From the sequence record NC_049825.1: DNA of 49,530 nucleotides, one strand, 5' to 3'. Source of the stretch: Escherichia phage grams. Positions 1 to 49,530 of this stretch are shown in pieces; the stretch's first letter is position 1, and each line of letters begins with the position of its first letter. The translations under genes and the position numbers were made by a program. The notes beneath the pieces are model-generated. The model did not search any database. It had not been told where the DNA came from and worked only from the letters and a program-made list of their open reading frames with translations.

Positions 1-325
1 ATAGCGTCCAGCGGTCGCCAGCTTCATCAAAAACATAACCAGCAACAGCACCAAGCGCTCTTCCTTGCTCAATCTGGTAACGCTTTCCTTCTTTGAAATG
101 CTTTTTGCACGGGATTTTGTGATCTACAAATGTGCATTTAATTGTTTTTGTCTTGATATGACGATAGTCAGACTCAACAGCGTTTTGCCACTTACTACCC
201 TTTGCAATGCTCTTTACCTGGAATTGTTCCAACTCGATCACATCATAGCTACCAGCAATTTTTTCGTATACAGCTTTATAACGACCGTTCATCAAAACGT
301 TGGTTTTATTGCAGATAACTTTCAT
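1..325 (-). CDS. hypothetical protein, N-terminal part; gene runs off the left edge
   Basis: ATG at 325..323 preceded by RBS AGGAGAAATAAACG (minus strand); open frame to position 1 (108 codons, MKVICNKTNVLMNGRYKAVYEK...); frame is continuous with the C-terminal fragment at 49470..49530. Confidence 0.5.
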   Translation of the reverse strand, partial: MKVICNKTNVLMNGRYKAVYEKIAGSYDVIELEQFQVKSIAKGSKWQNAVESDYRHIKTKTIKCTFVDHKIPCKKHFKEGKRYQIEQGRALGAVAGYVFDEAGDRWTL

Positions 326-356
326 CGTTTATTTCTCCTTTCGTTTCGGTGAAGTG

Positions 357-402
357 ATTATGCCAGGCTTTTACACCTGGCTTTTAACAAAAAGTGCTAT
401 TT
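357..402 (-). promoter_or_regulatory. conserved 22-bp element plus -10 (CATAAT), leftward
   Basis: AAATAGCACTTTTTGTTAAAAG-N18-CATAAT on minus strand; spacer CCAGGTGTAAAAGCCTGG is a hairpin-forming dyad; stop codon of methyltransferase gene lies inside element. Confidence 0.55.
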
Positions 403-1107
403 TGCGTTAGATTCAAAGACTGCGCGAGCAAAACCGCGCGGGGTGAGGGAGCGGATCATCTTTGTGCGCGATGATTTTCCGCCAGTTTTGGCCCAGCCTG
501 GATTATCTTTGTCGTCCTCTTTCGGCAGTATTAAAGCGCGCGGAGGAATAACAAAGCCGTTGCCAGTCCAAAGACATGTTTTCTTAAAGTAGCGATCCCG
601 CGCCGGAATGATATCAGGGAAGTCGGGATGTTTATCATCTTCCGGTAAATATCCGGCGTAATCGCACGGATGGAACGTGTAATCAGGCTTACGCCATAAC
701 GTTGACAGCTTGCCTACAGGATTCTCTATCATGTAAGGAACACCGAAATAATCAGCGATATGCGCGGCTATTTTGCAAGTGTCGGCGGCCTCATTTTGGA
801 AGTTAGGATTTTCCATGCGCTTTTTAGCCCAATGGCGAGATCCGCTGTTTGCTAATTGTGTGCAAGGTGGGAAGGCCATAATGAAATCAGGTTTACCCCA
901 ATTTTCAAGTTTTGCGTTATATTTGAATAGATCATCAATCCACACATTAACGTAAAAAATATTATCATGGATTATGCGCACTGAGTGGTAATCTCCGTGA
1001 TCGGCATCATCGTAATTAAAGCAAATGCATTTATAACCAGCATCAGCCCAATCTTTAACAGCCTTACCAGATCCATCAAACAAAGAGAAAATTAAACCTT
1101 TATACAT
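397..1107 (-). CDS. DNA (cytosine-5)-methyltransferase
   Basis: 236 aa; motif I FSLFDGSGK, catalytic PC motif FPPCTQ, ENV motif MIENPVG in canonical order; RBS GAGGTGA upstream. Confidence 0.75.
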   Translation of the reverse strand: MYKGLIFSLFDGSGKAVKDWADAGYKCICFNYDDADHGDYHSVRIIHDNIFYVNVWIDDLFKYNAKLENWGKPDFIMAFPPCTQLANSGSRHWAKKRMENPNFQNEAADTCKIAAHIADYFGVPYMIENPVGKLSTLWRKPDYTFHPCDYAGYLPEDDKHPDFPDIIPARDRYFKKTCLWTGNGFVIPPRALILPKEDDKDNPGWAKTGGKSSRTKMIRSLTPRGFARAVFESNAK

Positions 1108-1116
1108 TTCATCACC

Positions 1117-1341
1117 TCAAAACGGAAAGCATCGCGCACAGTTAGGATCAAAATTGCAGCCGCAATCATTGACAATCATCGTTGGATCTGCAAATGCAGC
1201 GCCGCATTCATGATCCATATCCATATCACCCAGCGCATCATCAAGCGTCCTGATCTTATATGCAACTTCAAGCGCTGCCTCTTTATTTAATCCTGCATCT
1301 TCAGCCATTTGCAGGCGCTCAAAAAATCCGTCCTGACTCAT
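1117..1341 (-). CDS. hypothetical small Cys-rich protein (74 aa)
   Basis: ORF with C-terminal Cys cluster (HECG...NDCGCNFDPNCARC); start ATG overlaps stop of upstream small ORF (ATGA coupling). Confidence 0.5.
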   Translation of the reverse strand: MSQDGFFERLQMAEDAGLNKEAALEVAYKIRTLDDALGDMDMDHECGAAFADPTMIVNDCGCNFDPNCARCFPF

Positions 1342-1451
1342 TTCATAAGCTCCTTGATAACAACCAGAATAATAGCAAGACCAGCAGTGACAACCAAAAG
1401 ACCAATAAGGCCAATCATCACTCCAAATAAAATATCAAGAAATTTCATCAT
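1338..1451 (-). CDS. small hydrophobic membrane peptide (37 aa)
   Basis: MMKFLDILFGVMIGLIGLLVVTAGLAIILVVIKELMK; RBS AAAGGTGA 6 nt upstream; stop overlaps next start; below size cut-off of the ORF track. Confidence 0.4.
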   Translation of the reverse strand: MMKFLDILFGVMIGLIGLLVVTAGLAIILVVIKELMK

Positions 1452-1498
1452 TATTATCACCTTTATTTAAAGGGAGGCGAAAACCTCCCATTGATTAA

Positions 1499-1726
1499 TC
1501 AGACAGCCTTCCAGCTTTCAATAAACATGCTGTTTTCTTCCAGTAGTTTAATCAATTCTTCGCGTGTATATTTGCGGATTTTACTACCAGGATGCGAGCC
1601 AACAACAAACACACCTTTACCGCTTGTGATTGTTAACTGGTTGATTCCGCAAGATTTATCCATTTTCACGGCGACGCGGTGATGTGCATCAACAGTGTGC
1701 ATGATGTTAGTGATTTTAGCTTTCAT
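1499..1726 (-). CDS. hypothetical protein (75 aa)
   Basis: ORF with RBS GAGGA upstream on minus strand. Confidence 0.5.
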   Translation of the reverse strand: MKAKITNIMHTVDAHHRVAVKMDKSCGINQLTITSGKGVFVVGSHPGSKIRKYTREELIKLLEENSMFIESWKAV

Positions 1727-1900
1727 TATTCAATCCTCATTATATTTAGTGTGGTAACTATGCCAATTTTGCGAAATATTGTTTAACAATTCGTGATATC
1801 AGTTGAAATAGCTATGGCGCTTTGCTCGCTTGTCGTCTCCGCCATAATGATCATTAGAAACTGCAATCATCCAGGCATTATGGAATATTATTAGCTTCAT

Positions 1901-2194
1901 CTAATTAATGCCCACCACGTTAAAACTTACAGCTTTTGTTGCGCCAAATACATACGCCTCAACAGCGCCGCCAAATACGCGAATTTTTCCCTGTCCGTAC
2001 TGCGTATTCATATTGCGCCAAACGGTTCTATTAGAACAGAACGCGTTACCAGTCTTAATGAGATTATCCATCTCTTTTCTTAGATCATGATAATCAAGCC
2101 AGAATCTATAAGCGCGTTGTTTAATTCGCGCGCTTCCGGATGGCTGTTTTCGTGTTCCCAGGTAATCAGAGTAACCATTTTCAAATCCTCGCAT
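1901..2194 (-). CDS. hypothetical protein (97 aa)
   Basis: ORF immediately downstream of a motif promoter; short leader without clear SD, start uncertain. Confidence 0.4.
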   Translation of the reverse strand: MRGFENGYSDYLGTRKQPSGSARIKQRAYRFWLDYHDLRKEMDNLIKTGNAFCSNRTVWRNMNTQYGQGKIRVFGGAVEAYVFGATKAVSFNVVGIN

Positions 2195-2211
2195 TCGTTA
2201 TCGATGTGTGT

Positions 2212-2257
2212 AATATATCGGATCGCGAGGATTGAGTTTTAACAAAAAGTGCTATTT
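2212..2257 (-). promoter_or_regulatory. conserved 22-bp element plus -10 (TATATT), leftward
   Basis: AAATAGCACTTTTTGTTAAAAC-N18-TATATT on minus strand; 9-bp inverted repeat AATCCTCGC/GCGAGGATT flanks the -10. Confidence 0.55.
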
Positions 2258-2522
2258 AGTCCAGGAATTCGATTTCACGATCGCCAGTTAACGGATCTAC
2301 AAGCCAGAATCCGAGCGGTTCGCCGTAAACACCGCCATAGAATCCAAGCGCCGCCAGATCTTCACCTTTAACGAATGCCAGGTTTCCGCTACGGCTTACG
2401 TGCGACACGTTAACGATAACCGGAAAGGTGCGATCCTTAAACGCAGGCCGCAGGGCGTAACATCCGTTGTTGAGCAAACGGGCTTTGCGCTTAACTGGAA
2501 TAGGTGCATTGATTCGCGCCAT
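2256..2522 (-). CDS. hypothetical protein (89 aa)
   Basis: Internal ATG of track ORF 2256..2615 chosen because of RBS AAAGGGGAAATAAAG and to avoid overlap with upstream gene; stop TAA abuts conserved element. Confidence 0.5.
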   Translation of the reverse strand: MARINAPIPVKRKARLLNNGCYALRPAFKDRTFPVIVNVSHVSRSGNLAFVKGEDLAALGFYGGVYGEPLGFWLVDPLTGDREIEFLD

Positions 2523-2541
2523 CTTTATTTCCCCTTTGTTG

Positions 2542-2781
2542 TTAACCATGTTTAACAGCATCCAGAACATCACAGGATTCGTTAATAAACTTTGCCATGC
2601 GCTTATCATCACCAAAAGGAATTAGCGCGTTAAACTCGCGTTTGCTACTGAATACCGTCACTTTATGAAACGATGCGAACGGCATCGACGGGAACTCTAC
2701 TGTTTGCGTCAGGATCCGCAATCCCATCTTTTTGGCCCTTACCTGGGCCTCAGCGAGTTCAAAATCCACTTCATTAATCAT
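2542..2781 (-). CDS. hypothetical protein (79 aa)
   Basis: ORF; RBS GAGGAG; start overlaps stop of upstream gene (ATGA). Confidence 0.5.
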   Translation of the reverse strand: MINEVDFELAEAQVRAKKMGLRILTQTVEFPSMPFASFHKVTVFSSKREFNALIPFGDDKRMAKFINESCDVLDAVKHG

Positions 2782-3050
2782 TTCTTGATCTCCTCAGCAA
2801 TAAACTTCAGGACTTTGCGCAAAAACACTTCATTATTGATGGTCGCTGGCAATTCCTCTTTCACTTCTTGCGGCAGATAGATATTGCCGTGCCATGTCAA
2901 ACAATCGTAGTTGATACGATAAGAGCAAAGCCATTCGCAATCGTTATCCGCTTCCCAAATGCAGAGTTGCAGAACATCACCGAAATCCTCAACAGTCAGA
3001 TCCAGACCGTGACGCTTTGCAAAGTTGAAAGTGGTTTTGCTGATGTTCAT
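2778..3050 (-). CDS. hypothetical protein (90 aa), first gene of leftward operon
   Basis: ORF with RBS CAGGAGAAAGCAA; preceded by motif promoter at 3089..3134. Confidence 0.55.
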   Translation of the reverse strand: MNISKTTFNFAKRHGLDLTVEDFGDVLQLCIWEADNDCEWLCSYRINYDCLTWHGNIYLPQEVKEELPATINNEVFLRKVLKFIAEEIKK

Positions 3051-3088
3051 TTGCTTTCTCCTGATGGGTATCTCGTTTCGATGTGTGC

Positions 3089-3134
3089 ATTATGCCGAAT
3101 CCAGTCAGGCACGTTTTAACAAAAAGTGCTATTT
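3089..3134 (-). promoter_or_regulatory. conserved 22-bp element plus -10 (CATAAT), leftward
   Basis: Minus-strand reading AAATAGCACTTTTTGTTAAAAC-N18-CATAAT. Confidence 0.55.
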
Positions 3135-3786
3135 GCCTACTGGTCATTATTCCATCTATTCCATTAATCAGGAATAACAGGAATAACTCATTCGCGATCA
3201 CCTGGATTGTGAGACTTTGAGTTTGGTCAATTTTAATCAGTTGATTAACTTTTTGTGTGGAGGGGATAGAGAAACGCGGCCCTCTTGCGTCCTTTCCAGC
3301 AATCCTGGCGCGCGCATCTGTTATTTCTGTTCCCCGCGTTATCTCAATCAAGCCTCCGCACTTTGAGATAACGCAATCAGCGTTCATAAACAAAAAGAAC
3401 AAAATAAAATTTATATATATACACATAAAATCAATAAGTTAGTTATATATGTATTTATATTTGTTATTTACTGTTATGCTTGTTCTGTGGGTATATGGTA
3501 GTGTGGTATTGTTTTTGGTGATATGTATGTGTGGTTGTATACTTTTTAATCAATGGTAATGCGTGGTGATTTTTGTATGTATATATATGGGGTGGCGGCA
3601 ATCCTCCGTCAACCAGGTTAACAAGGTCATTTTTATCTGTTAAACCAATAACTTAACTTGTGCATTTTGTTATCTTTAAACGCGCCACACGCCAAAAGTC
3701 GTTATTAAAACACAAAATATATTGACATGTAGGAAAGGCAAGGCAATAATGCATCCAGTTTAAACGCAACAAAAGGAGTAGATGCC
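3135..3786. repeat. AT-rich non-coding region A (diverged paralogue of 32268..32692)
   Basis: No convincing ORF; shares AATCAATAAGTTAGT, GGTGATTTTT and TTTTGTTATCT blocks with region B. Confidence 0.6.
3722..3750 (+). promoter_or_regulatory. canonical sigma70 promoter (candidate early promoter)
   Basis: TTGACA-N17-AATAAT, about 36 bp upstream of ATG 3787. Confidence 0.6.
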
Positions 3787-4275
3787 ATGAGCGAAGAAAA
3801 TATTAGCACCATGTCGCGCAGTGAGTTCTGCGATATGCTTCGCACCCTGGGCGCGGCAATTGGTAGCGGTGAACGTAATAATGTATTCATGCCAGCACTT
3901 TTCTTGTGCGCTAACGTGGAGAACGGCGACGCAATTACAGCATCGTACATGCGCCAGGTTGTAAACCGCGTACCAGAAGTGAAGCAAAAAGGCGTGATCA
4001 GCATTAAGCGAAAGGTGACTGATGAGGGTGATGGCTTTGTGTTTACGCTCACAGAAGCCAAAAGCAAGCCACGCGTTCTGACTGGTGAAGAAATCGACGA
4101 GATCGCAGAAAAGCGCGCAGAGAAGGCGGTAAGCAAAATCCTTAATCACCTTGTAAGCGTAATGCCAAATATCACAGACCTGGAAGGCGATAAACTTGCT
4201 GGAGCGTGTGAGGCTATCGGGCGCTACCAGGATATGATTCGTAAACTCGCTGGAGGAAAAGAGGTAAAATTCTAA
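3787..4275 (+). CDS. hypothetical early protein (162 aa)
   Basis: ORF with RBS AAAGGAG; first gene downstream of sigma70 promoter. Confidence 0.6.
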   Translation: MSEENISTMSRSEFCDMLRTLGAAIGSGERNNVFMPALFLCANVENGDAITASYMRQVVNRVPEVKQKGVISIKRKVTDEGDGFVFTLTEAKSKPRVLTGEEIDEIAEKRAEKAVSKILNHLVSVMPNITDLEGDKLAGACEAIGRYQDMIRKLAGGKEVKF

Positions 4276-4319
4276 ATAGCACTTTTTGTCAAAAGTCAAA
4301 AACGATAACCAGGCATAAT
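4274..4319 (+). promoter_or_regulatory. conserved 22-bp element plus -10 (CATAAT)
   Basis: AAATAGCACTTTTTGTCAAAAG-N18-CATAAT; overlaps stop codon TAA of upstream gene. Confidence 0.55.
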
Positions 4320-4374
4320 AAATCACATAGGGCGGCACGGCGTCGCCCACTAAAACCAATCAGGAGAAAGCACC

Positions 4375-5265: not shown

Positions 5266-5308
5266 ATAGCACGAATTGTTAAAACTCAAATGTGGGGCCA
5301 GGTATAAT
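5264..5308 (+). promoter_or_regulatory. conserved 22-bp element (GAATTG variant) plus -10 (TATAAT)
   Basis: AAATAGCACGAATTGTTAAAAC-N17-TATAAT; -10 flanked by near-dyad GTGGGGCC/GGCCTCAC. Confidence 0.55.
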
Positions 5309-5338
5309 GGCCTCACTTTCAACGAAGGGGATAAAACG

Positions 5339-6331: not shown

Positions 6332-6543
6332 TTGTGACGCACGATGTAGAGCCAGGCGCGAGCACTGCGCAGGACATGGTTTCCGGAATGACGCCAAAAT
6401 CGCACAGAATGGTACGCGTGCGCGGTTATAGCTTCAATGTCTCCCAAACACTCAAGGAGATCTTGGCCTTGCCAGAAGTAGATACAGCTCTTGTGGGTGT
6501 GCATACAAACGAATATGTTTCTTTCCACATTGTGACGAAATAG
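6328..6543 (+). CDS. hypothetical protein (71 aa)
   Basis: ORF; ATGA overlap with upstream gene. Confidence 0.5.
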   Translation: MIVTHDVEPGASTAQDMVSGMTPKSHRMVRVRGYSFNVSQTLKEILALPEVDTALVGVHTNEYVSFHIVTK

Positions 6544-6583
6544 CACTTTTTGTTAAAATAGCTTAACGGGCTTGCTGTATAGT
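6538..6583 (+). promoter_or_regulatory. conserved 22-bp element plus -10 (TATAGT)
   Basis: AAATAGCACTTTTTGTTAAAAT-N18-TATAGT; stop TAG of upstream gene inside element. Confidence 0.55.
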
Positions 6584-8899: not shown

Positions 8900-9208
8900 A
8901 TGGCTAAAAGCAATCGTAAAATGTTGATTAACGCATTCGAAAAGGCAGCACTTGAGCGTGGTTGGAATGACTCATTTCACACAGCAAACTGTATCCGCCG
9001 TTACGGATTCAAGAATTGCCGCTCATGGGCGCGTGAAATGGCTTCATGGTATGATTTTGATGCTCATTATCTTGATATGGATTGCGCCATGGTTGAAATG
9101 GATTGCGCCATGGTTGAAATGATTGAGCAGGCCGCACTAGAGGATCGACCATTAACGCAATCTGATTTTGACGATTTTGTGCGCGATGAAATCTATTACA
9201 TGAGCTAA
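8900..9208 (+). CDS. hypothetical protein (102 aa) containing an in-frame 21-bp tandem duplication
   Basis: ATG at 8900 with RBS AAAGGAGGAAACAAA; duplicated peptide MDCAMVE. Confidence 0.5.
   Translation: MAKSNRKMLINAFEKAALERGWNDSFHTANCIRRYGFKNCRSWAREMASWYDFDAHYLDMDCAMVEMDCAMVEMIEQAALEDRPLTQSDFDDFVRDEIYYMS
9079..9120 (+). repeat. perfect 2 x 21-bp tandem direct repeat inside CDS
   Basis: GGATTGCGCCATGGTTGAAAT repeated twice. Confidence 0.9.
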
Positions 9209-9251
9209 TAGCACTTTTTGTTAAAACTTCCGCGAGGGCATTTGTTAAAGT
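9206..9251 (+). promoter_or_regulatory. conserved 22-bp element plus -10-like TAAAGT
   Basis: TAATAGCACTTTTTGTTAAAAC-N18-TAAAGT (preceded by TG); stop TAA inside element. Confidence 0.5.
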
Positions 9252-11324: not shown

Positions 11325-11846
11325 ATGGCTAAAAACGTTGAGCCAGCAGTAAAGGCTTGCAATTTTAAAAAACTATATAATAAGCAATATGGCGATATAG
11401 CAAAAATGACAAAGGCGCACAAGTACACGCCGGAGCAGGTATTTGATCTGGCTGTTCGTTACTTTACGTGGGCTGAGGAAAACCATATACAGGCTGCGGA
11501 AACGGCATCCTTTCAGGGTGACGTATACGAAAGTAAGATTCACAAGCCGCGCGTGTTCACCTTAAATGGATTCCGCTTATTCGCTGGCCTTTCTGCTTCC
11601 GTGCTTGAAAAATGGCGACGCGAGCCAGGATTCAGCGATGTTATGGACTTTATCGACGGCGTTGTTTACGAGCAAAAATTCCAGCTTGCTGCAAACAATA
11701 TTGTTAACGCCGGATTCATTGGTAAAGAGATCGGCATTGAAAAGCCAGCTACCGTTACCATTGAGAATAACACAAGCGCAAGCGTTGACGCTGTAACGGC
11801 GGAGGAAGTCAAAGAGGCGGTAATTGACATTCTGGAGAAGATATAA
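11325..11846 (+). CDS. terminase small subunit (putative)
   Basis: 173 aa ORF immediately upstream of and overlapping terminase large subunit; RBS AAAGGAGGG; assignment by position and size. Confidence 0.5.
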   Translation: MAKNVEPAVKACNFKKLYNKQYGDIAKMTKAHKYTPEQVFDLAVRYFTWAEENHIQAAETASFQGDVYESKIHKPRVFTLNGFRLFAGLSASVLEKWRREPGFSDVMDFIDGVVYEQKFQLAANNIVNAGFIGKEIGIEKPATVTIENNTSASVDAVTAEEVKEAVIDILEKI

Positions 11847-13414
11847 TGCTGATTTGGGAAGACTTAACAGCGGCGCAGAAACGCGCCGTTAAGGAAATGA
11901 GCGAATATTCATTCGAAAAGATGATCCGCATTTGGTTTCAATTATTGCAAGGTCAGAAATTCTTAGGAAACTGGCATTTCAGCTACCTATGTAGCGAAGT
12001 TGAAAAAATCATCAAAGGCGAGTCACAGAACGTAATTTTCAACATAACGCCAGGCAGCGGTAAAACAGAGATATTCTCGATCCATATGTCACCTTATGCG
12101 TCATTGAAAAGTAAGAAGGTGCGAAATCTTAATCTTTCGTTTAGTGATGGCCTTGTCCAGCAGAATAGTAACCGAATTAAGGAGATTATTGGTTCTCCAG
12201 AATGGCAGGAGCTATGGCCAGGAAAGCTGGCAAAGGCGAGCGCAAAGGATTTGATTGTAACCGATGGCGGCAAGGTTAAGTTACAAGTTAACTCGCGTTC
12301 TATCGGTGGTCAGGTTACTGGTCTGCGTGGCGGCTACATGGACGATGGATTTACTGGTATGCTGGTTCTTGATGATCCAGACAAGCCGGATGACATGCTT
12401 TCTAAGGTGAAGCGCGAAGCCGGACACATGCGCCTAAAGAACACGGTGCGATCGCGTCGAATGAAGGACACAACGCCCATCGTAATGGTCCAGCAACGGC
12501 TACACGTCAATGATTCAACATGGTTCATGACAAACGGCGGCATGGGCGGCATACAGTTTAAGGTGGTTAGTATTCCGGCGCTCGTTACTAAGGAATATCG
12601 CGAAACGCTTCCTGATTGGTTAAAGCCTGAGTTTGATCGCGATGTTTTGTCCAGTAAGCCAGTGATGATTGATGGAGTTGCTCATTATTCATTCTGGCCT
12701 GCTAAGGAAAGCGCGGAGGAATTGCTTGCGCTTCGAAATGCTGATCCGTACACGTTCGCTAGTCAGTATCAGCAACAGCCTGTTGCGCTTGGCGGTAACG
12801 TGTTTAAAACAGAGTGGTTTCAGTATTACGGCAGCAGCGAGAAATGCACGCTACCAAAACCGGATCGCTTTGAATATACATTTATCACGGTTGATACCGC
12901 ACAGAAAACAGGGGATCTTAACGACTACTCCGTGATCTGTTATTGGGGGATGTATAAAGATCGCGTTTACTTCATTGATGGTGTTCGCGGAAAATGGGAA
13001 GCACCAGACCTTGAGACTAATTTTGTTGCGTTCGTTAATCAGTGCTGGAAGCGCAATAAAGAATGCGGAACGTTGCGAAGGATTCATGTTGAAGATAAAT
13101 CGTCTGGCACTGGTTTGATTCAGAGTGCAGCGAAAAAAATAATGATCAAGATCAATCCCGTTCAGCGCGATAAAGACAAGGTTACTCGTGCAATGGACGC
13201 AGCGCCAGTAATGCGCGCCGGACGCGTAGCACTTCCAGAATCGCATCCTATGCTGGCTGAGATACTCGCTGAAGTTGCGGCGTTTACATTCGATGATTCG
13301 CATCCTCATGATGATATTGTTGATAACATCATTGATGCGGTTAACATTGAAATGAACATGGCAGATGATCCGGTAGGAAGAATGAAAAAATTGGCAGGTT
13401 TGCGGAACAAATAG
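11846..13414 (+). CDS. terminase large subunit
   Basis: 522 aa; P-loop ITPGSGKTE; N-terminal ATPase and C-terminal nuclease-sized domains; position before portal. Confidence 0.8.
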   Translation: MLIWEDLTAAQKRAVKEMSEYSFEKMIRIWFQLLQGQKFLGNWHFSYLCSEVEKIIKGESQNVIFNITPGSGKTEIFSIHMSPYASLKSKKVRNLNLSFSDGLVQQNSNRIKEIIGSPEWQELWPGKLAKASAKDLIVTDGGKVKLQVNSRSIGGQVTGLRGGYMDDGFTGMLVLDDPDKPDDMLSKVKREAGHMRLKNTVRSRRMKDTTPIVMVQQRLHVNDSTWFMTNGGMGGIQFKVVSIPALVTKEYRETLPDWLKPEFDRDVLSSKPVMIDGVAHYSFWPAKESAEELLALRNADPYTFASQYQQQPVALGGNVFKTEWFQYYGSSEKCTLPKPDRFEYTFITVDTAQKTGDLNDYSVICYWGMYKDRVYFIDGVRGKWEAPDLETNFVAFVNQCWKRNKECGTLRRIHVEDKSSGTGLIQSAAKKIMIKINPVQRDKDKVTRAMDAAPVMRAGRVALPESHPMLAEILAEVAAFTFDDSHPHDDIVDNIIDAVNIEMNMADDPVGRMKKLAGLRNK

Positions 13415-17665: not shown

Positions 17666-17687
17666 CGTTTAACAAAAAATGCTATCA
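17666..17687 (-). promoter_or_regulatory. conserved element in orientation opposite to flanking late genes
   Basis: Plus strand reads GTTTAACAAAAAATGCTATCA; no well-spaced -10 on minus strand. Confidence 0.35.
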
Positions 17688-17731
17688 TTGTGGCGTTACA
17701 TACTAACAGCCTTTATATATGGAGGGAGAAA

Positions 17732-19867: not shown

Positions 19868-20303
19868 AAACTACACGATAAGGGAATTTCACGGCAACAT
19901 TGATGCGTGGATAAACGCCGTTGATAGTGGACTAAAAGATTGTGTTGAGTTATTCGCCGAAAAAGTACACGCAGATTTGGTTAAGCGTTCTCCGGTAGAT
20001 ACTGGTCGTTACCGTGGAAACTGGCAGGTAACAGCAAATAAGCCGCCATTGTATGCGCTTAACCAGTACGATAAGCACGGCGACAAAACGATCGCGGAAG
20101 GTAAGAGAGCTATATACGCAATATTGAGAGGTGGCGGAGCGGTAAGGGCCATTTATTTTTCAAACATGCTTATTTACGCTAACGCGCTTGAATACGGTCA
20201 TTCAAAACAAGCGCCAGCTGGTGTGCTTGGGATTGTAGCGGTTAAGTTGAGATCTTATATGGCTGAGGCAATAAAAGAATCGAGGGCAAAAAATGCACTA
20301 TGA
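19860..20303 (+). CDS. HK97 gp10-like neck/tail component
   Basis: 147 aa; VDTGRYRGNWQV block characteristic of the family. Confidence 0.5.
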   Translation: MAKNYTIREFHGNIDAWINAVDSGLKDCVELFAEKVHADLVKRSPVDTGRYRGNWQVTANKPPLYALNQYDKHGDKTIAEGKRAIYAILRGGGAVRAIYFSNMLIYANALEYGHSKQAPAGVLGIVAVKLRSYMAEAIKESRAKNAL

Positions 20304-21401: not shown

Positions 21402-21447
21402 ATGCTACACGATTCATAATCAATTCTTTTAACAAAAAGTGCTATCA
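21402..21447 (-). promoter_or_regulatory. conserved element plus -10 (TAGCAT) pointing leftward, antisense to late genes
   Basis: Minus-strand reading TGATAGCACTTTTTGTTAAAAG-N18-TAGCAT. Confidence 0.4.
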
Positions 21448-21458
21448 AGGAGAAAGAA

Positions 21459-32222: not shown

Positions 32223-32267
32223 ACTATACACGATCTTACAGCAGGCGTTTAGCAAAAAGTGCTATTC
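32223..32267 (-). promoter_or_regulatory. conserved 22-bp element plus -10 (TATAGT), leftward
   Basis: GAATAGCACTTTTTGCTAAACG-N17-TATAGT on minus strand, upstream of lipoprotein gene. Confidence 0.5.
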
Positions 32268-32692
32268 TGTTCTTTTTGTTCTCCTGCGTTCTCAAATCTG
32301 CGGAGGCGTAAATTTAGAGCAAAAAGTGAGCAATAACAGAGCGCGATATATACAGATAAATATATATACATACATATAAATCAATAAGTTAGTAGTATAT
32401 ATATTAATGTTTGTTCTTTATTGTTATCTGTGTTTTGTGTGATTTTGTGTGCCTGGTGATTTTTCTGTGATTATGCATGTGTCAGTGGTTATGTGTGTCT
32501 ATATATCTATATCCGGCGCAAATTGAGGAACAAGAGAACAAAAAGACAACAAAGATATTTATCAATCACTTACATGTAAGTTTTGTTATCTAAGTTGGCG
32601 AGAACGTTGTTAAAACAGAAAAAACAAAATAACTATTGACTAAACGCATCAAATAGCTACAATGCAGGCATACCAACCAATGAGGGTAAATC
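32268..32692. repeat. AT-rich non-coding region B (diverged paralogue of 3135..3786)
   Basis: Shares AATCAATAAGTTAGT, GGTGATTTTT, TTTTGTTATCT and GTTGTTAAAAC blocks with region A. Confidence 0.6.
32636..32663 (+). promoter_or_regulatory. canonical sigma70 promoter (candidate early promoter)
   Basis: TTGACT-N16-TACAAT about 30 bp upstream of ATG 32693. Confidence 0.6.
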
Positions 32693-37330: not shown

Positions 37331-38698
37331 TTAACTCTCAAGAGTTGTCTGTTTGTTGATTAATGCAGAAACAGCCGCTTTCAGTTCTTCAACCTCCTTT
37401 TCAAGTTTTGCTATTTTTTCTTTGTTATCAACATCACGAGAACGTAGAGCCTTTATTGCAGCCAATCCATCAAGAAGCATTGGTGTTTGATCTAAATGAA
37501 GAATGCCGCCAATTTCTTTTGTGTATTCTCTATCTATCTTTCTGATTTGTTGAGATATAACGCCCCTTCTATAACTTCTTTCTGGGCCATCAGATAAATA
37601 TGAAAATATTTTAAAATCCATCCTGTTTATATTGTCTAAAGCGCCTTCAATATTAAGATTTCCCTTAATATTTTTCATTGTTTCATCTGATATTGCGTAA
37701 GTGGTTAGGCCAGCCCACGCACTCCATGCTCCAGATTCCATTGTTCTTGCATAAAATGACGAATTACGTGCTGACAACTGAAAAACATAATTATCTGGCG
37801 AACCAACATGAGGGATATTTATACCAAATGTAACTAGGCTAGACGCTCCATTTGTTGAGCCAGTAAAGAATCTATAATATTTTGTGGAGTTTAAATCGCT
37901 CCAGTCTGAATCACCATACTCAGCCCATGCCAATTTTTGATTTTTTGCATATTCCTCAGTGCTTTGATATCCAGTTCCTCCTTGATCAATTCCCAATGGT
38001 ATCCATCCAGGAGTATTATTTTTTGTAACTCCCCATTCACCATTGTTTGCAAGACTGAATTTATAATCACCAACAGTCATTACTGTTGACGTTGTTTCTT
38101 GTACAAATCTGTCTACGCTTAGGTTTTTTCTTGCTTCACCTTTATCTGCAACATCGCTAAGGTTGTTGTTTTTGTTAAGCATATTTGCCGGATTTATGCT
38201 ATCTGCATATTCTTTCGCCTTATCTTCAGAAGCCTTAGCGGCATTTTTTGAAGTCAGAGCATCAGAAGCAGATCTCGCTGCGGCATCCTTGCTTTGATTC
38301 GCAGACGCTGCGTTTTCTTCCACCTGTTTAGCCAAATCTTGATAATGCTTCCAATCAAACGTCTTAAAGAATTCCAGCGCTTCCCCGATCTCTGATTCTT
38401 TACTCTGATAGTAGCGCAATGTTTCCGCTACATCTTGAGCAAGCCCATCAACAGTTATTGAGTCATGAAGCAAGATCGCGTAATTTGAGCGAGCAACTAC
38501 CGCACCTCCAGTTGTAATTGCACGAATGCTTGTATCGTTGATAACTTCAGTTATTACAGCAATCTGCAACGGCTGAGTTAAAAATACAATGGTCGCACCA
38601 GGGCGAATGAGTGTTAGTTGCTCTCGCCATTTTGTGTCGTATCCAGTGATATAACCTTGTGCGTCCATTGACGCTTGTCCGGTTCTGTAAATTGCCAT
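37331..38698 (-). CDS. tail fibre protein with C-terminal intramolecular chaperone domain
   Basis: ATG at 38698 with RBS GGGAGA; Ala/Ser/Lys-rich repeats like fibre shafts; C-terminal region recalled as resembling autoproteolytic chaperone domains of T5 L-shaped fibre. Confidence 0.65.
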
Positions 38699-38761
38699 GC
38701 GTTTTCTCCCATGTTGCATGTTAATGTCAATGCAGATAATAGCATTTGCTAAGGCCAAAAA

Positions 38762-40257: not shown

Positions 40258-40268
40258 TATTCATTCTC

Positions 40269-40314
40269 CAATAGCATTTTTTGTTAAACGATGATTTAAT
40301 GATTGTGTATTATA
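40269..40314 (+). promoter_or_regulatory. conserved element (variant) plus -10 (TATTAT) for helicase operon
   Basis: CAATAGCATTTTTTGTTAAACG-N17-TATTAT. Confidence 0.5.
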
Positions 40315-42392: not shown

Positions 42393-42798
42393 TAAAGGCG
42401 ATTATCTGGAGTTTTACGAAAGAGATCCGACAGATACGCTAAAAGAGGAATCTCACCAGATCGGGGCGTTTCAATGGTTAACTTATGCTCATCCTGAATT
42501 ACTGGCATGGCATACGAAAAACGAGGGCGACAAGGGGATCGCCACCGCAATGATGGATCAGCAAGCTGGGCTTGTTAAGGGCGTAAGTGATTTTATCATC
42601 CTGATTGGATTAAAAGGTCGTTACCCGTTCGCGGCAATTGAGATGAAGCGCGTCAATAAGTCCGGCAAGGGTAAGGCTTCACCAGTCAGCAAGGACCAAA
42701 AAGCCTTCTTGCGTCGTGTGCGTGAGCTTGGCGGATTCGCTGCCGTAACATACGGATATAAGCAATTCATGATCGCGGTAGAATACATGATGAAATAG
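42379..42798 (+). CDS. VRR-NUC domain nuclease
   Basis: 139 aa; SDFIILIG...AIEMK block fits PD-(D/E)XK of VRR-NUC; overlaps helicase stop. Confidence 0.55.
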   Translation: MAMTDKGDYLEFYERDPTDTLKEESHQIGAFQWLTYAHPELLAWHTKNEGDKGIATAMMDQQAGLVKGVSDFIILIGLKGRYPFAAIEMKRVNKSGKGKASPVSKDQKAFLRRVRELGGFAAVTYGYKQFMIAVEYMMK

Positions 42799-42838
42799 CA
42801 CTTTTTGTTAAAACAGGCGCGAAGGATTGCGCCATAAT
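42793..42838 (+). promoter_or_regulatory. conserved 22-bp element plus -10 (CATAAT)
   Basis: AAATAGCACTTTTTGTTAAAAC-N18-CATAAT; spacer contains GGCGC...GCGCC dyad; stop TAG inside element. Confidence 0.55.
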
Positions 42839-43578: not shown

Positions 43579-43836
43579 ATGCAGAAAGAAAGAAGAGTTT
43601 TACTTAATGAAGATGGCGAATTTCTTTTGTATCGCGCTATGGTATGCGATGCACTTGATAAAAACCCTAACGTGAAAAAGATGATTGATTGCGATCCGTG
43701 GGAATTTTCAAGCGCATTAGATATGAGCTTTGAGGAGACAAAAAAACTCCCGCTTGAAAAATGGCACGAACAAATCAGAAATGACATGCAAGAATTTGTC
43801 GATTCTTGGAATTTTAAGAACGGAATGATCCACTAA
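43579..43836 (+). CDS. hypothetical protein (85 aa)
   Basis: Internal ATG of track ORF with RBS GGAGC. Confidence 0.45.
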   Translation: MQKERRVLLNEDGEFLLYRAMVCDALDKNPNVKKMIDCDPWEFSSALDMSFEETKKLPLEKWHEQIRNDMQEFVDSWNFKNGMIH

Positions 43837-43879
43837 TAGCACTTTTTGTTAAAACGCCCGGCCTTGTGTCGGGCATAAT
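43834..43879 (+). promoter_or_regulatory. conserved 22-bp element plus -10 (CATAAT)
   Basis: TAATAGCACTTTTTGTTAAAAC-N18-CATAAT; spacer GCCCG...CGGGC dyad; stop TAA inside element. Confidence 0.55.
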
Positions 43880-44091: not shown

Positions 44092-44323
44092 ACAAGGTAG
44101 GCAGGCTGTATGGGATCACGCAAAGGAATGCGGGATCGCAGAAGACATATCCAGGATAGCGAAATATTTTGATATTGCTGACATAAGCATTATCAGCGGC
44201 GACAAAATGACATTTCTCAATGAACGCCCGCGCAAGATGCATCGTGTCCCAGCAATACCAACAAAGATTGATTTCAAAGAGGCTATGGCGAAAATTCGCG
44301 AGCCGCGCAAATACTACAAATGA
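44081..44323 (+). CDS. hypothetical protein (80 aa); start uncertain (44039 or 44081)
   Basis: In frame with track ORF 44033..44323. Confidence 0.4.
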   Translation: MKVEQGRQAVWDHAKECGIAEDISRIAKYFDIADISIISGDKMTFLNERPRKMHRVPAIPTKIDFKEAMAKIREPRKYYK

Positions 44324-44421
44324 GGATTATTATCATGTGGCGTTTGTTACTTTTGCCCTTACCTGTTATGATGTCGATCTCTATTGTATATGTTGTCATA
44401 ATGAGATAAGGAGAATTTTTG

Positions 44422-45537: not shown

Positions 45538-45579
45538 ACTTTTAATCATTAAAATATAAATATAAATCATCAATTTAAT

Positions 45580-45612
45580 TGGGCGTGGCATTTTGCTTCG
45601 CCCTTTTTTTAT
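45580..45612 (+). terminator. intrinsic terminator
   Basis: GGGCG...CGCCC stem plus T-run. Confidence 0.6.
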
Positions 45613-45683
45613 TCCTTTTTGTGCGTTCAATGGTTAGGATACAATCAATTAATTGTTGACTTTTATCTACAGGAGATCTAATT

Positions 45684-45899
45684 ATGAAAGATTTTTTAAA
45701 CGCTGCAACTTCCGGCACTGGCGGCGCGTCAATCACTGGCGCGGTAACTGGTCAAACAACTATTGCAATAGCCAGCTTCGTTTTGATGGCTGCATTTGGT
45801 ATGTGGGGCGCTTATCTTCGTTGGCGTGATAGTAAGGCGCTACGTGACGCGCTTGAATGCGGTGATATTAAGAAGGCTATTGAAATCAGGGGTAAATAA
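45684..45899 (+). CDS. holin (pinholin-like)
   Basis: 71 aa; Gly/Ala/Thr-rich hydrophobic segments; directly upstream of endolysin; RBS CAGGAG. Confidence 0.6.
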
Positions 45900-46387
45900 T
45901 GAGCATAAAACAAAGAGTGACCGCTGCGGCTTTTGGCGTTGCTCTTGCTCTTACTTCTCCATTACTGGAGGAAATAGAAGGAGTAAAATATAAGCCGTAC
46001 AAAGATATTGCTGGAATATGGACGGTTTGCGCCGGAATAACTGGACCTGACGTAATACTAGGTAAGACGTACACACAGAGAGAGTGCGATGCGCTACTGG
46101 CAAAGCATATCAAGATCGCAAAGGATGAAGTTGATAAGCGCGTGAAGGTTGATATTCCTGATACAATGCGCGCGGCAATGTATTCATTCACGTATAATGC
46201 TGGCACTGGTGCTTTTAGAAATTCAACCATGCTTAAGCTGATTAATAAAGGCCGTTACATGGAAGCGTGCGATCAGTTATGGCGATGGACCAAATACACC
46301 AATCCAAAAACAGGAAAGAAAGAAACGTCTAAAGGACTGCGCAACCGCCGCGCCGTGGAATTTAAATATTGCATTAAGGAACTGTAA
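45899..46387 (+). CDS. SAR endolysin (lysozyme)
   Basis: 162 aa; weakly hydrophobic N-terminal segment [17 protein letters not shown]; E-x8-D-x5-T catalytic spacing; sequence recalled as closely resembling phage 21 R. Confidence 0.8.
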
Positions 46388-46389
46388 TT

Positions 46390-46776
46390 ATGAGAAAGTT
46401 ATCAGTAATCGCGATCGCTGTTATCTTGTCTGGATGTTCAAGCGTTATGCCACTGACCGGATTGATAGGAAGCAAGCCTGAAATAACAGCACAGGCTGGC
46501 GCGGAGAACGTTAAGCAGACAGTTGGCGTTACCGCAAAGCAGGACGCCAGCACAAAACAGGAAACCACAATAAAGGAATCTGCGGTTGATAAGGTGGACA
46601 CGTCCAGCAAGAAGGATTTCACAACATCAACCATTCAGGCCAATACCATCAAGGCTGATAAAATCCAGGTCGTGCAGGGTAATAACGGCAGATGGTACGA
46701 CCCCGTAATCATATGCGTGGTTGTGTTCCTTGTGCTGATTTGTCTTTACTGGAGGGAAAAGAAAAAGGAGGCTTAA
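46390..46776 (+). CDS. unimolecular spanin
   Basis: 128 aa; N-terminal lipobox ILSGC and C-terminal TM helix VIICVVVFLVLICLYW, the arrangement described for T1 gp11. Confidence 0.7.
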   Translation: MRKLSVIAIAVILSGCSSVMPLTGLIGSKPEITAQAGAENVKQTVGVTAKQDASTKQETTIKESAVDKVDTSSKKDFTTSTIQANTIKADKIQVVQGNNGRWYDPVIICVVVFLVLICLYWREKKKEA

Positions 46777-46800
46777 CGCCTCCTTTATTTTTATGCGTCG
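46770..46800. terminator. bidirectional intrinsic terminator
   Basis: GGAGGCTTAACGCCTCC flanked by A-run and T-run. Confidence 0.7.
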
Positions 46801-47006
46801 GGCCACATATGGCTTTCGTTTGTGAGTTTTTCATATTCGCGAACTTCAAATTCGCACTTATCACCGTACATCTCCGCGACTTTCTTCTCGTTCTCTACCG
46901 CTGATTCCTCGGTCCATCCATCAGCTTTGCTGTAAAGAGTTGGAATCTCACTGCTAGTACCGTTGGAGTGATTATAAACGCGAACTACTAAAAATTTGTT
47001 AGCCAT
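46791..47006 (-). CDS. hypothetical protein (71 aa)
   Basis: ORF downstream of motif promoter 47044..47089. Confidence 0.5.
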   Translation of the reverse strand: MANKFLVVRVYNHSNGTSSEIPTLYSKADGWTEESAVENEKKVAEMYGDKCEFEVREYEKLTNESHMWPDA

Positions 47007-47043
47007 GATGTTTTCCTTCTGGTCGTTTCGTTTCGATGAAACA

Positions 47044-47089
47044 AATATACCCGATACGAGATCGGGTGTTTTAACAAAAAGTGCTATTC
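47044..47089 (-). promoter_or_regulatory. conserved 22-bp element plus -10 (TATATT), leftward
   Basis: GAATAGCACTTTTTGTTAAAAC-N18-TATATT; spacer CCCGAT...ATCGGG dyad. Confidence 0.55.
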
Positions 47090-47204
47090 AATACGCTTTA
47101 CAGTAACCAACAAAACGCCGTCATCATCACACAAATTATGCTCTGATATATCAAACGCTCGCATGTCAGAATGAATGAGCGTTAACATTGCGTGCATGAA
47201 GTCG

Positions 47205-47597
47205 TCATGTGAGATTGAACTTACGGCGCAGAACTTCAATATTTTGTCTATTAGCATTTGACGTAAACAATTCTTCATCGCTCATTTCTCCGATCCGTAA
47301 AACATCCCTTACCCATTCGTTTTGCATACCTTCCAGGCTGTAAAGTTCAAACGAGAAAGGGCGATTTGCTGATCCTTTCTTACACCAGAACTTTCCACCA
47401 ACTCCATCAAGATAACCAGCGGTCATCATTCTTGCGCAAAATTCTTTTGAAACGGCAGTTGCAAACGTCCTCGGAGTAAATCCTGCGGCCCTTGCGAGCC
47501 GCTCACATTCTCTGTGCTGAAAGATAAATTTTGCTATATGTTGACGTGTAAACCACTCGAATGACTCACACCAGCGATACAGATCCAGAAGAAACAT
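47205..47597 (-). CDS. hypothetical protein (130 aa)
   Basis: ORF; start overlaps stop of upstream gene. Confidence 0.5.
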   Translation of the reverse strand: MFLLDLYRWCESFEWFTRQHIAKFIFQHRECERLARAAGFTPRTFATAVSKEFCARMMTAGYLDGVGGKFWCKKGSANRPFSFELYSLEGMQNEWVRDVLRIGEMSDEELFTSNANRQNIEVLRRKFNLT

Positions 47598-47599
47598 AA

Positions 47600-49183
47600 T
47601 TACCCTAGCAATGTTGGATTTACGAAAACAACACCATTAATTACACAAATATAATTTCTTTCCTCAAGCATCGGAAGCAGTTGCGTTTCCATGCGCTTCA
47701 TTACTCCAGCCTGGCCAACAAAAGGCTTAACTTTTCGTGCAGCCTCGTATATTGCGCGCACATTCAAGATCCCCTTGTTAGCCTTACCGTGTCGAGTGAT
47801 GATCTCGATTAGTTTACCCATTTCAGCATCATCACCAGCATAGCCAGAAGCGTTGGCGGCGCTAATGTATGTTTTGCTCAACTCGCTAAACATCAGCAGT
47901 GCTTCCTGAACGGTTTCAACCTCAATCTCTTTCGACTTCTGAGGGTATCCACCAGGATTAAACCAATTGCGGATAGTGTGCAAAACCGAAGCAATCCTTA
48001 TCACCTGCTTATCCATTTTGCCAAGCGCGCCGCGCAGCATTGTATGCGAATACTTTCCTCCATCGGCAAGGTGCGGCTCCATCTCCTGACGAGCCATGTT
48101 AAGCACTCGCATTGCTGATTTGCTGATCTTAAGCTGGATGTTTGATTCGCTCATTATGTTATGGATCAGCTTAAAATATTGGCTTTTCAGTTCTCCATCA
48201 ACAGGTTCATAAGTCGAATCACCGTTATCATCAACAAATTTTCGACGACCTAAAAATGATTCTTCACGCACAAGCAAATAACGTTCACTCACACCGATAC
48301 CGCGCGATCCTGCATCCATGATGGCATTAATTGTTTCATCCTGAGCAATTACTGCCATACAGCCAAGAGCTTTAAAACTCATGTTATTGTCTGCGTTTGC
48401 GCGAGCTATAGAAACATGACCGTGATCCCATGCTTTTAGCACAAGTTCGCTGTTTGTTTTGCGTTCGCTATTGGCATATGTCAGACCTAAAAGGCTGTTA
48501 ATACTCGTTGCCTCGTCTGAAATTACAGCAAAGTTACCCTGGCGATTGTTGATTCTTGCAAGTCCTTCAGGCGTGGTGTCTGAAACAGGGAAAACAATGT
48601 CACACATCTTTTCCAGCTTTTCTTCAAGATCTTCTTTCTCCTGGTATAGCGATTCCATATCAGCACCAGATCGCTCGCTCTTCATCTCTTTTGCAAGACC
48701 TGCCAACTTTGCCTGAATCTTTTTCCGCTCCTTCTTTCGCTGATCATTAATCCTTTCCACTTCAGCAACCATAGGAGCAAGAGCCAGGCTGTTAACGGCA
48801 GATTTACCAGTTGAAGGAGGCTGGCTTGTGACAACATAAAGAGCGGTTGGCTGATCCGTTCCGTGATACTCAACCGTGAATCGCCCAAGCATTGCAGCAG
48901 ACACACAGCCGATAAAATGCATATATGCCGATGATTCAGGGAATTGAACAGATCGAGCAATGTTTCGCGCCAACTTTCCAACAACATCAACATCATTGCC
49001 AAGAGAAATTACAGGGTAGCGATCGTTTCCGTTATTAACATCATTAACCTCACCCCAAAAGCTGGACGATTGACGGTATCCGTTAGCCTGAATGGACACG
49101 CGCACCGGAGACAATCCTTGTGCATCAGCTAATTCGATAATTTGTTTTGGTGTTAGTTTATTGGTTTCAAACGAAAAATTCAT
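47600..49183 (-). CDS. P-loop ATPase, replication-associated candidate
   Basis: ATG at 49183 with RBS AAAAGGAG; Walker A-like SQPPSTGKS and Walker B-like VISDE. Confidence 0.55.
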   Translation of the reverse strand: MNFSFETNKLTPKQIIELADAQGLSPVRVSIQANGYRQSSSFWGEVNDVNNGNDRYPVISLGNDVDVVGKLARNIARSVQFPESSAYMHFIGCVSAAMLGRFTVEYHGTDQPTALYVVTSQPPSTGKSAVNSLALAPMVAEVERINDQRKKERKKIQAKLAGLAKEMKSERSGADMESLYQEKEDLEEKLEKMCDIVFPVSDTTPEGLARINNRQGNFAVISDEATSINSLLGLTYANSERKTNSELVLKAWDHGHVSIARANADNNMSFKALGCMAVIAQDETINAIMDAGSRGIGVSERYLLVREESFLGRRKFVDDNGDSTYEPVDGELKSQYFKLIHNIMSESNIQLKISKSAMRVLNMARQEMEPHLADGGKYSHTMLRGALGKMDKQVIRIASVLHTIRNWFNPGGYPQKSKEIEVETVQEALLMFSELSKTYISAANASGYAGDDAEMGKLIEIITRHGKANKGILNVRAIYEAARKVKPFVGQAGVMKRMETQLLPMLEERNYICVINGVVFVNPTLLG

Positions 49184-49210
49184 TGATGATAACTCCTTTT
49201 TGATGCGGCA

Positions 49211-49256
49211 ATAATACCGCACCAATGCTACCCGCATTTAACAAAAAATGCTATTT
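49211..49256 (-). promoter_or_regulatory. conserved element (variant) plus -10 (TATTAT), leftward
   Basis: AAATAGCATTTTTTGTTAAATG-N18-TATTAT; ATGCGG/CCGCAT dyad flanks spacer and -10. Confidence 0.5.
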
Positions 49257-49472
49257 TATCCGCTCTATGCTAACTAAGATTTTTTCTGGTTCCTTTGCAC
49301 TATGGCAATGCGCGGTTACAGAATCAACAAAATCAAAGTAAAGTGATTTGTGATATGAGAATCCAATCAGCCATCCAACCATTGTTTTCTTTATTGGCCT
49401 GACTATATCGCCAGGCTTAAAGGTTTTTGTTGCTGAATAAGTCACCTTATAGCGATATTCAGTCTTGATCAC
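49251..49472 (-). CDS. hypothetical protein (73 aa), GTG start
   Basis: GTG start overlapping stop of upstream fragment (GTGA); stop TAG inside conserved element. Confidence 0.4.
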   Translation of the reverse strand: MIKTEYRYKVTYSATKTFKPGDIVRPIKKTMVGWLIGFSYHKSLYFDFVDSVTAHCHSAKEPEKILVSIERIK

Positions 49473-49530
49473 TTATACATAGCCTCAAACAAATGGCAGC
49501 CACCAGCGGAAAATCCTACTTCTTCGCGGT
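49470..49530 (-). CDS. C-terminal fragment of gene entering from right edge (likely same gene as 1..325)
   Basis: Open frame ...REEVGFSAGGCHLFEAMYK stop; frame continuous with 1..325 if ends are joined. Confidence 0.4.

Follow-up and report, generated by a model that had tools for sequence, protein, structure and literature searches.

Does the sequence record of Escherichia phage grams (NC_049825.1) begin and end where the virion DNA does, or was a circular map opened at a convenient place? The question is raised by a minus-strand gene that runs off both edges of the window, i.e. the whole 49,530-nt stretch analysed here, which the first-pass annotation had taken to be most likely a complete, arbitrarily linearised genome. 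Features that bear on the answer are collected in Table 1.

The gene at the left edge begins at an ATG (the reverse complement of positions 323-325) behind an AAGGAG ribosome-binding site, and a frame check agrees that it is still open at base 1 with one nucleotide over (325 = 108 x 3 + 1). The right edge, 49469-49530 (62 nt), gives two nucleotides followed by 19 codons and the stop codon TGA. When base 49530 is joined to base 1, the Tyr codon cut by the window ends (T/AC) is whole again, and the result is a 387-nt minus-strand gene, 325..1 + 49530..49469, whose 128-aa product, MKVICNK...DRWTL-Y-REEVGFSAGGCHLFEAMYK, is exactly the one written down at first pass for the in-frame continuation. 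The stop of this junction gene overlaps the GTG start of the 73-aa gene downstream as GTGA, a 4-nt overlap that the annotations of relatives share. The GC skew has a negative sign at either end of the window, which agrees with one minus-strand block crossing the join. Each end of the window carries one part of the junction gene, and nothing is missing between the two. End-to-end comparison found no terminal repeat of at least 10 bp between the two ends; this carries little weight because overlaps of this sort are removed by assemblers and curators.

Table 1. Features at the join, in the packaging region and of the window as a whole
Feature	Coordinates	Strand	Basis
Window, probable whole genome	1..49530	.	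Hanrivervirus-like (Drexlerviridae, Tempevirinae) virulent siphovirus, 44.1% G+C
Junction gene, 5' part	1..325	-	ATG at 325-323, 108 codons + 1 nt; phrog_2684 match of joined product
T1-family 21-nt repeat copy (ATAGCACTTTTTGTTAA core)	384..403	-	CATAAT after 21 nt
DNA methyltransferase-like gene, directly upstream of junction gene	397..1107	-	phrog_757 E 1.4e-85
AT-rich non-coding region, ~650 nt, between leftward and rightward early gene blocks	3140..3786	.	Sequence
Small terminase subunit, P22 gp3 type	11325..11846	+	Pfam GP3_package, phrog_606
Large terminase subunit	11846..13414	+	phrog_38 E 4e-106
DUF3987-type DNA helicase, 527 aa	47600..49183	-	Pfam DUF3987 E 1.8e-43; phrog_2373
Second copy of T1-family 21-nt repeat	49238..49257	-	TATTAT after 21 nt
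73-aa gene directly downstream of junction gene	49251..49472	-	phrog_12725; GTG start
Junction gene, 3' part	49469..49530	-	2 nt, 19 codons, TGA 49471-49469; orthologues, T1 ST7

How much is the frame match worth? The left part of the junction gene was joined in simulation to 20,000 sites drawn at random from this genome; in 37% of the joins the frame remained open over 20 codons or more, and in 5.8% the stop overlapped the beginning of an ORF 60 or more codons long. Because so many random joins stay open, the frame match is not significant by itself, and we dropped it as statistical evidence for closure. The in-frame join that had prompted the whole-genome idea is nevertheless real, judged by the homology that runs across 49530/1; only the frame match alone proved statistically weak.

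That homology covers the full length of the joined protein. Its residues 1-128 align to positions 1-127 of 127 of phrog_2684 (E 1.8e-47), and the four 128-aa orthologues annotated in relatives match it with 98% identity and no gaps, residues 101-128 being identical in all four. ST7 of phage T1 aligns through the join as well (64% identity over 74 residues, E 1e-33). By similarity, the junction gene is a small conserved gene of the phrog_2684 family and an orthologue of T1 ST7. Joining the ends, the check proposed at first pass, thus gives a single open ORF with full-length homologues, rather than one without relatives. Two relatives carry function labels for this gene, 'MORN repeat-containing' (the phiE31-2 orthologue) and 'phosphoglucomutase/phosphomannomutase'. 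Both are unsupported, because searches of Pfam, NCBIfam and PDB gave sub-threshold noise only: the sole Pfam match of the joined protein was SURF2, below threshold; NCBIfam and PDB sequences returned nothing significant; and no Pfam MORN match appeared even at E up to 1.

On either side of the junction gene lie the methyltransferase-like gene, called Dcm-like or site-specific methylase in relatives and without a match in Pfam or NCBIfam, and, beyond the 73-aa gene, the helicase gene. Two copies of a 21-nt repeat described for phage TLS (PMC11447400) were recognised here; from their sequence, the copy at 384..403 is probably the promoter of the junction gene and that at 49238..49257 probably the promoter of the helicase gene.

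Contiguity of the ends was examined in other genomes with a 1206-nt query centred on 49530/1, counted where one piece aligned over 80% or more of it. The query is collinear in one unbroken alignment in 96 phage records. For the four best of these, which we checked (EC147, both haarsle entries and JakobBernoulli), exactly 1206 nt are covered at 97% identity, and the net length across the join is unchanged. Independent contigs from metagenomes and read archives were found via the exact helicase protein (many contigs, 50-52 kb), and the join is spanned by four of the six inspected; contigs L007 and L008 have zero gaps across it over about 4.6 kb. An exact 29-mer across the join is present in two IMG/VR contigs; an exact 45-mer had no match there, nor had a 41-mer specific to the window and taken from its lateral tail fibre gene. 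The extra sequence between the ends that would speak against closure is absent from the four records checked, from the ungapped L007 and L008 and from the IMG/VR contigs with the 29-mer. No identical strain opened elsewhere was found with exact words in IMG/VR or by exact look-ups of two proteins (the 97-aa ORF at 1901-2194 and the methyltransferase-like product).

The comparison also works in the other direction. The joined ends correspond to 48593/48594 of the complete genome JLBYU09 (OK272487.1), and the ends of JLBYU09 map to window 395/396, inside continuous sequence; likewise, the ends of haarsle map to 3259/3260, again inside continuous sequence. Closure is therefore reciprocal: the window ends are contiguous in related genomes, and the linearisation points of relatives lie inside the window. 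Records of relatives differ widely in where they are opened, and one close relative was deposited as circular.

Is the unit complete? The window and JLBYU09 are collinear around the whole circle, and what is unmatched amounts to four replacement segments only: window 1753-2122, 6333-6537 and 46792-47026 are equal or near-equal in length to their counterparts (370/359, 205/203 and 235/235 nt, window vs JLBYU09), and at 37382-38364 the end of the lateral tail fibre differs (983/441 nt). Every module listed at first pass (packaging, structural, replication, recombination and lysis genes) is present; no tRNA genes were found in the 49,530-bp window. Its size, said to be near that of T1-like genomes, indeed lies close to the 48,836 bp of T1 and the 49,902 bp of TLS, and within the 46,060-52,463 bp spanned by the genus, in which genome length varies with optional HNH endonuclease genes and with small accessory genes. 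With no bases missing at the join, these results bear out the view that the window is a whole genome.

Each half of the window matches Hanrivervirus records with 95-96% identity over 91-97%. The ICTV criterion for a genus is at least 70% nucleotide identity over the whole genome, which places the window in Hanrivervirus. Our home-made VIRIDIC-like estimate, with two full genomes compared directly, gives intergenomic similarities of 92.3% to JLBYU09 and 83.2% to haarsle, against a same-species threshold of at least 95%, and coverage x identity is at most ~0.92 for every listed record (collection up to August 2025). By these sequence measures, the genome seems to add one more member to a well-populated genus, possibly a distinct one at the species level.

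The small terminase scores 37.3 bits against Pfam GP3_package (cut-off 29.4) and is 53% identical to that of T1 and 49% to that of TLS; the large terminase is 65% and 63% identical, respectively, over full length. TLS has been shown by experiment to package by a pac-headful mechanism, with terminally redundant, partly permuted DNA (PMC11447400), one Hanrivervirus was classed as 'Headful (pac)' by PhageTermVirome (PMC13507304), and T1-like phages are stated to be without fixed ends (PMC13164509). The T1 record (NC_005833) has an annotated terminal redundancy of 2.8 kb (repeat_region 1..2800) and opens in the gap equivalent to window 3140..3786. The TLS record start maps to window ~3200, and haarsle starts at 3260 and ends at 3259. 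By analogy, the pac site of this phage is expected in the AT-rich non-coding region of Table 1. Location of pac by the P22-like word AGATTT, reported for TLS, was rejected because a 6-mer is uninformative. The window break lies about 3.2-3.8 kb from the expected pac region, from which we conclude that the opening point is arbitrary. The description 'arbitrarily linearised' fits a break inside a conserved gene, away from the openings of T1, TLS and haarsle, in a group whose records open variously.

Were the window ends the true ends of virion DNA, either cos ends or short terminal repeats of which one was trimmed, the continuity of frame would be coincidental or incidental, and this is compatible with what is seen, given that 37% of random joins leave an open frame of 20 codons or more. 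Such ends would, however, fall within a codon, in a gene found intact and conserved in 96 records as well as in T1. The window is also without a terminal repeat, its terminases belong to the P22-gp3/T1 headful type, experimental and PhageTerm data on relatives point to pac-headful packaging, and the T1, TLS and haarsle records open elsewhere, at the equivalent of window 3.2-3.8 kb; we consider physical ends extremely improbable. Hardly more credible is a naturally circular replicon, e.g. a plasmid-like prophage or episome, with a circularity that does not come from headful packaging. The map is circular and a relative was deposited as such, yet the 40 largest ORFs and the junction-region genes gave no match to integrase, partition or repressor-switch PHROGs, the relatives are virulent phages from plaque assay, and the gene set is that of T1, which is strictly lytic and has linear virion DNA.

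A near-complete contig that lost sequence at the break or elsewhere would account for a length 1.5-3 kb below that of many relatives (51-52.5 kb), and several window segments are without a counterpart in haarsle. Against such a loss stand the unchanged length at the join in the four best records and the ungapped L007 and L008; the pieces unmatched in JLBYU09 are replacements, not deletions, and length in the genus varies with the optional HNH endonuclease and accessory genes, the modules all being present. We regard an incomplete window as very unlikely. A similarly small chance attaches to a packaging series that starts in or beside the junction gene, such that the break would be a coverage discontinuity at a relocated pac and the genome still complete; nothing in the sequence favours it.

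We are thus highly confident that the window is one complete, unit-length genome of a T1-like coliphage (Hanrivervirus), a circular assembly cut inside a gene, and that the break is not a physical end. On the model of its relatives, the phage would replicate to concatemers, on which the P22-gp3-type small terminase and the large terminase would make a first cut at pac; each head would take in a little over one genome length, and the virion DNA would be linear, with terminal redundancy and partial circular permutation. Reads of such DNA would assemble into a circle without natural ends; the cut that opened it lies between the first and second base of the Tyr codon inside the T1 ST7 orthologue. 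The terminal redundancy, permutation and pac position of this phage are those suggested by its relatives.

Circular closure of this kind is already known and is an ordinary bookkeeping result of T1-like packaging, not a new biological feature; since it is expected for T1-like headful phages, it neither opens nor settles a biological question. It does matter in practice. Gene calling should treat the window as circular, or a conserved 128-aa gene is lost or split in two, and the window can be rotated to the T1 convention (a non-coding start near 3.2-3.8 kb) for genome comparison.

Among known systems, the Hanrivervirus genomes (JLBYU09, pSf-1, herni, damhaus, haarsle and JakobBernoulli) are closest. 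Their gene order agrees with that of the window around the entire circle, and in them, too, the 128-aa gene lies between those for the methyltransferase and the helicase; the window differs in being identical to none in the collection and in an opening point used by no listed relative. T1 (NC_005833) belongs to another subfamily (Tunavirinae) and TLS (AY308796) to another genus, but both have homologous small and large terminases and a like overall layout. The portal is 63% identical to that of T1, in which ST7 occupies the same neighbourhood as the junction gene and adjoins the helicase. Pac-headful packaging was established by experiment in T1 and TLS, whereas here it would follow from that kinship; the T1 and TLS records were opened at or near pac, and the window inside a gene ~3.2-3.8 kb off. 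The gp3/gp2 terminase of the Salmonella phage P22 is the textbook case of pac-headful packaging. P22 is a temperate podovirus with a genome unrelated to that of the window, and the likeness is a distant one at the domain level only (GP3_package, in the small terminase); the T1 small terminase is likewise annotated as similar to P22 gp3.

When 49530 is joined to 1, the minus-strand gene divided by the window ends becomes a single 387-nt ORF encoding 128 aa, with its Tyr codon divided T/AC, and the in silico join bears out the in-frame continuation described in the first-pass annotation. The stop codon overlaps the GTG start of the 73-aa gene next downstream (49251..49472, minus strand) in a GTGA arrangement. 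Taken alone, the frame match is weak evidence: the left part of the gene was attached at 20,000 random points of the same genome, and 37% of these joins kept the frame open for 20 codons or more; 5.8% closed with a stop that overlapped the start of an ORF of 60 codons or more. With a match so frequent by chance, the case must rest on homology across the join.

Coordinates of the divided gene, the T1-family 21-nt repeat and the non-coding region between the early gene blocks
Feature	Position	Strand	Remarks
Junction gene, 5' part	325..1	-	ATG read from 325-323; good ribosome-binding site upstream; frame still open at base 1, one base over
Junction gene, 3' part	49469..49530	-	62 nt continuing the frame: 2 nt, then 19 codons, then TGA stop (49471-49469)
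21-nt repeat copies	384-403, 2239-2258, 3116-3135, 4273-4292, 6537-6556, 9205-9224		core ATAGCAYNNNTTGNTAA
21-nt repeat copies	32249-32268, 40268-40287, 42792-42811, 43833-43852, 47071-47090, 49238-49257		core ATAGCAYNNNTTGNTAA
21-nt repeat, looser matches	start near 1799, 5266, 7842, 39800
21-nt repeat, antisense copies	17669-17688, 21429-21448	-	against direction of late structural operon
AT-rich non-coding region, 650 nt	3140-3786		between divergent early gene blocks; many short TATATATG- and GTGGT-like words

The joined ORF has the homologues that had been proposed as a check. Its product matches phrog_2684 end to end (residues 1-128 on profile positions 1-127 of 127, E 1.8e-47), and a 387-nt gene is annotated at the same place in relatives, four of whose products are 98% identical to it without gaps; residues 101-128, which span the join, are identical. 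The orthologue in T1, a member of another subfamily, is ST7, whose alignment ends at window base 2 when the window is used alone and runs through the join when the joined protein is used (64% identity over 74 residues, E 1e-33), conservation being limited to the C-terminal ~75 residues. A 1206-nt query centred on the join aligned as a single segment covering 80% or more of the query in 96 phage records, and in the four best, which were checked, it spans exactly 1206 nt at 97% identity. The window's exact helicase protein (47600..49183, minus strand) is found on many independent 50-52 kb contigs assembled from read archives and metagenomes; of six that were inspected, four run across the join, two of these aligning ungapped over ~4.6 kb, and an exact 29-mer across the join is present in two IMG/VR contigs. 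No bases are lost or doubled at the join. The names given to two orthologues, 'MORN repeat-containing protein' (phiE31-2, PP988008.1) and 'putative phosphoglucomutase/phosphomannomutase' (JLBYU09, OK272487.1), found no support in Pfam, NCBIfam and PDB sequence searches.

In relatives, the surroundings of the junction gene form a hot spot of HNH_3 homing endonucleases; the window has no such gene there. One relative (L006, 5010-5722) has a 75-aa gene and an HNH gene in place of the 128-aa and 73-aa genes, another (L009, 3614-4111 and 5206-5703) has HNH genes on both sides of a 127-aa version, and T1 has the HNH gene ST8 (46085-46624) between ST7 and the helicase. The product of 397-1107 (minus strand), called 'Dcm-like C5 cytosine methyltransferase' or 'site-specific DNA methylase' in relatives, had no Pfam or NCBIfam match at the thresholds used; its sole match is phrog_757 (DNA methyltransferase), and the evidence for the assignment is weaker than the name implies.

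By nucleotide similarity, this is a Hanrivervirus-like genome (Drexlerviridae, Tempevirinae): several members of that genus show 95-96% identity over 91-97% of each window half, none being identical. It is collinear all round with the complete genome of JLBYU09, in which 49530/1 corresponds to 48593/48594. The ends of JLBYU09 itself fall at window 395/396 and those of haarsle at 3259/3260; since the ends of each genome fall within the continuous sequence of the other, each closes the other's gap. Only four replacement segments are unmatched in JLBYU09: three are similar in length in the two genomes, and the fourth is a different end of the lateral tail fibre. Intergenomic similarity is estimated at 92.3% with JLBYU09 and 83.2% with haarsle. 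The genome adds a further member, possibly a separate species, to a well-sampled genus. Its largest single difference from the closest genome is 37382-38364, the distal portion of the gene for the lateral tail fibre (37331-38758, minus strand), a strain-specific receptor-binding cassette with no nucleotide similarity to JLBYU09 or haarsle, from which a 41-mer is absent from IMG/VR.

PHROG scans found the packaging, structural, replication, recombination and lysis genes that the first-pass annotation had listed: small and large terminase, portal, head morphogenesis protein, prohead protease and major head protein; connector proteins, major tail protein, tape measure protein and its chaperone, tail tip proteins, J-like central fibre and lateral fibre; the Cor exclusion protein; RecE-like exonuclease, Erf, SSB, primase and two helicases; Dam, a second methyltransferase and kinases; and holin, endolysin and spanin. 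The length, 49,530 bp, is indeed near those of T1 (48,836 bp) and TLS (49,902 bp) and lies inside the genus range of 46,060-52,463 bp. Both ends show negative GC skew, as they should where one minus-strand gene block runs from ~47 kb through the join to ~3.4 kb. Some 20-22 unannotated 'Campylobacter phage' records (host Campylobacter jejuni; MG065636, MG065641, MG065675, MG065681 and ~18 more) resemble the window, those listed at 91-93% identity over most of their 47-50 kb; the host labels look doubtful, since the window is 44% G+C and Escherichia, Shigella or Salmonella are the hosts of all its other relatives.

The circular map can be explained by headful packaging of the T1-like kind. The small terminase matches Pfam GP3_package (P22 gp3) above the curated cut-off, and the large terminase shares 65% identity with its T1 counterpart and 63% with the TLS one. 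TLS, of the same subfamily, packages by a pac-site headful mechanism according to restriction analysis, its DNA being terminally redundant and partly permuted (PMC11447400); in the T1 record a terminal redundancy of 2.8 kb is annotated from the first base, and PhageTermVirome classed one Hanrivervirus as 'Headful (pac)' (PMC13507304). Packaging from pac, as in these relatives, would yield terminally redundant, partly permuted DNA, reads of which would assemble as a circle.

That the window boundaries are true physical ends is very improbable: they would cut a conserved gene in two, a terminal repeat of at least 10 bp was sought between them and not found, and the terminases are of the headful type. 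An incomplete contig is just as hard to credit, given the gap-free join and the reciprocal closure with JLBYU09 and haarsle, and the earlier view of the window as a whole genome stands. A naturally circular episome has an equally slight chance, as no lysogeny or partition function occurs among the 40 ORFs scanned and the relatives are all virulent.

For the complete phage genome, the opening point is arbitrary as far as the sequence can tell, as had been supposed. According to a recent T1-like genome paper, such phages lack fixed ends and their records are simply oriented like T1 (PMC13164509). The T1 record opens in the gap between leftward and rightward early gene blocks, and the starts of TLS and haarsle map to ~3200 and 3260, at the edge of the AT-rich non-coding region; because these records open there, that region is a candidate site of pac and/or the replication origin. 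It also holds a near-consensus sigma-70 promoter (TTGACA-17-AATAAT, ~3723-3751) toward the rightward genes. The window break lies 3.2-3.8 kb from it, inside a codon, and related records open at many points (window-equivalent 326, 396, 1161, 2241, 3260, 3268 and ~24,260, for example), one relative being deposited as circular. For annotation, the sequence should be handled as circular, or the 128-aa gene is lost.

Two elements bracketing the small unit of junction gene and 73-aa gene belong to the T1-family 21-nt repeat, whose function the TLS authors list as an open question (PMC11447400). The window has 14 copies by a strict pattern (0.04 expected) and 18 by a looser one; T1 has 21. In 17/18 window copies a -10-like hexamer (CATAAT, TATAGT, TATATT or TATTAT) lies 20-21 nt downstream, and 15 of the 21 T1 copies have one at 21 nt; the mean TATAAT match at that offset is 4.0 vs ~1.7 elsewhere. 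Beyond the hexamer, 25-45 nt further on, come a ribosome-binding site and a start codon. The repeat would thus sit at roughly −51 to −34 of a putative promoter with a non-canonical −35/−10 spacing of ~22 nt. If TTGNTA serves as the -35 element, such a spacer is longer than a standard sigma-70 promoter allows, and the repeat may then represent the upstream half of a promoter class, conserved in two subfamilies, that depends on an activator or a modified polymerase. The two antisense copies have poorer -10-like hexamers (TATGCG, TAGCAT). One occupies the short gap immediately ahead of the gene for the major head protein (17690), the other that ahead of the tape-measure chaperone gene (21459), and T1 carries antisense copies at the corresponding positions (15086- and 18850-). 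In TLS, all repeats are stated to be oriented with transcription (PMC11447400). Closure of the window ends is itself the ordinary, already known behaviour of T1-like headful phages and their assemblies.
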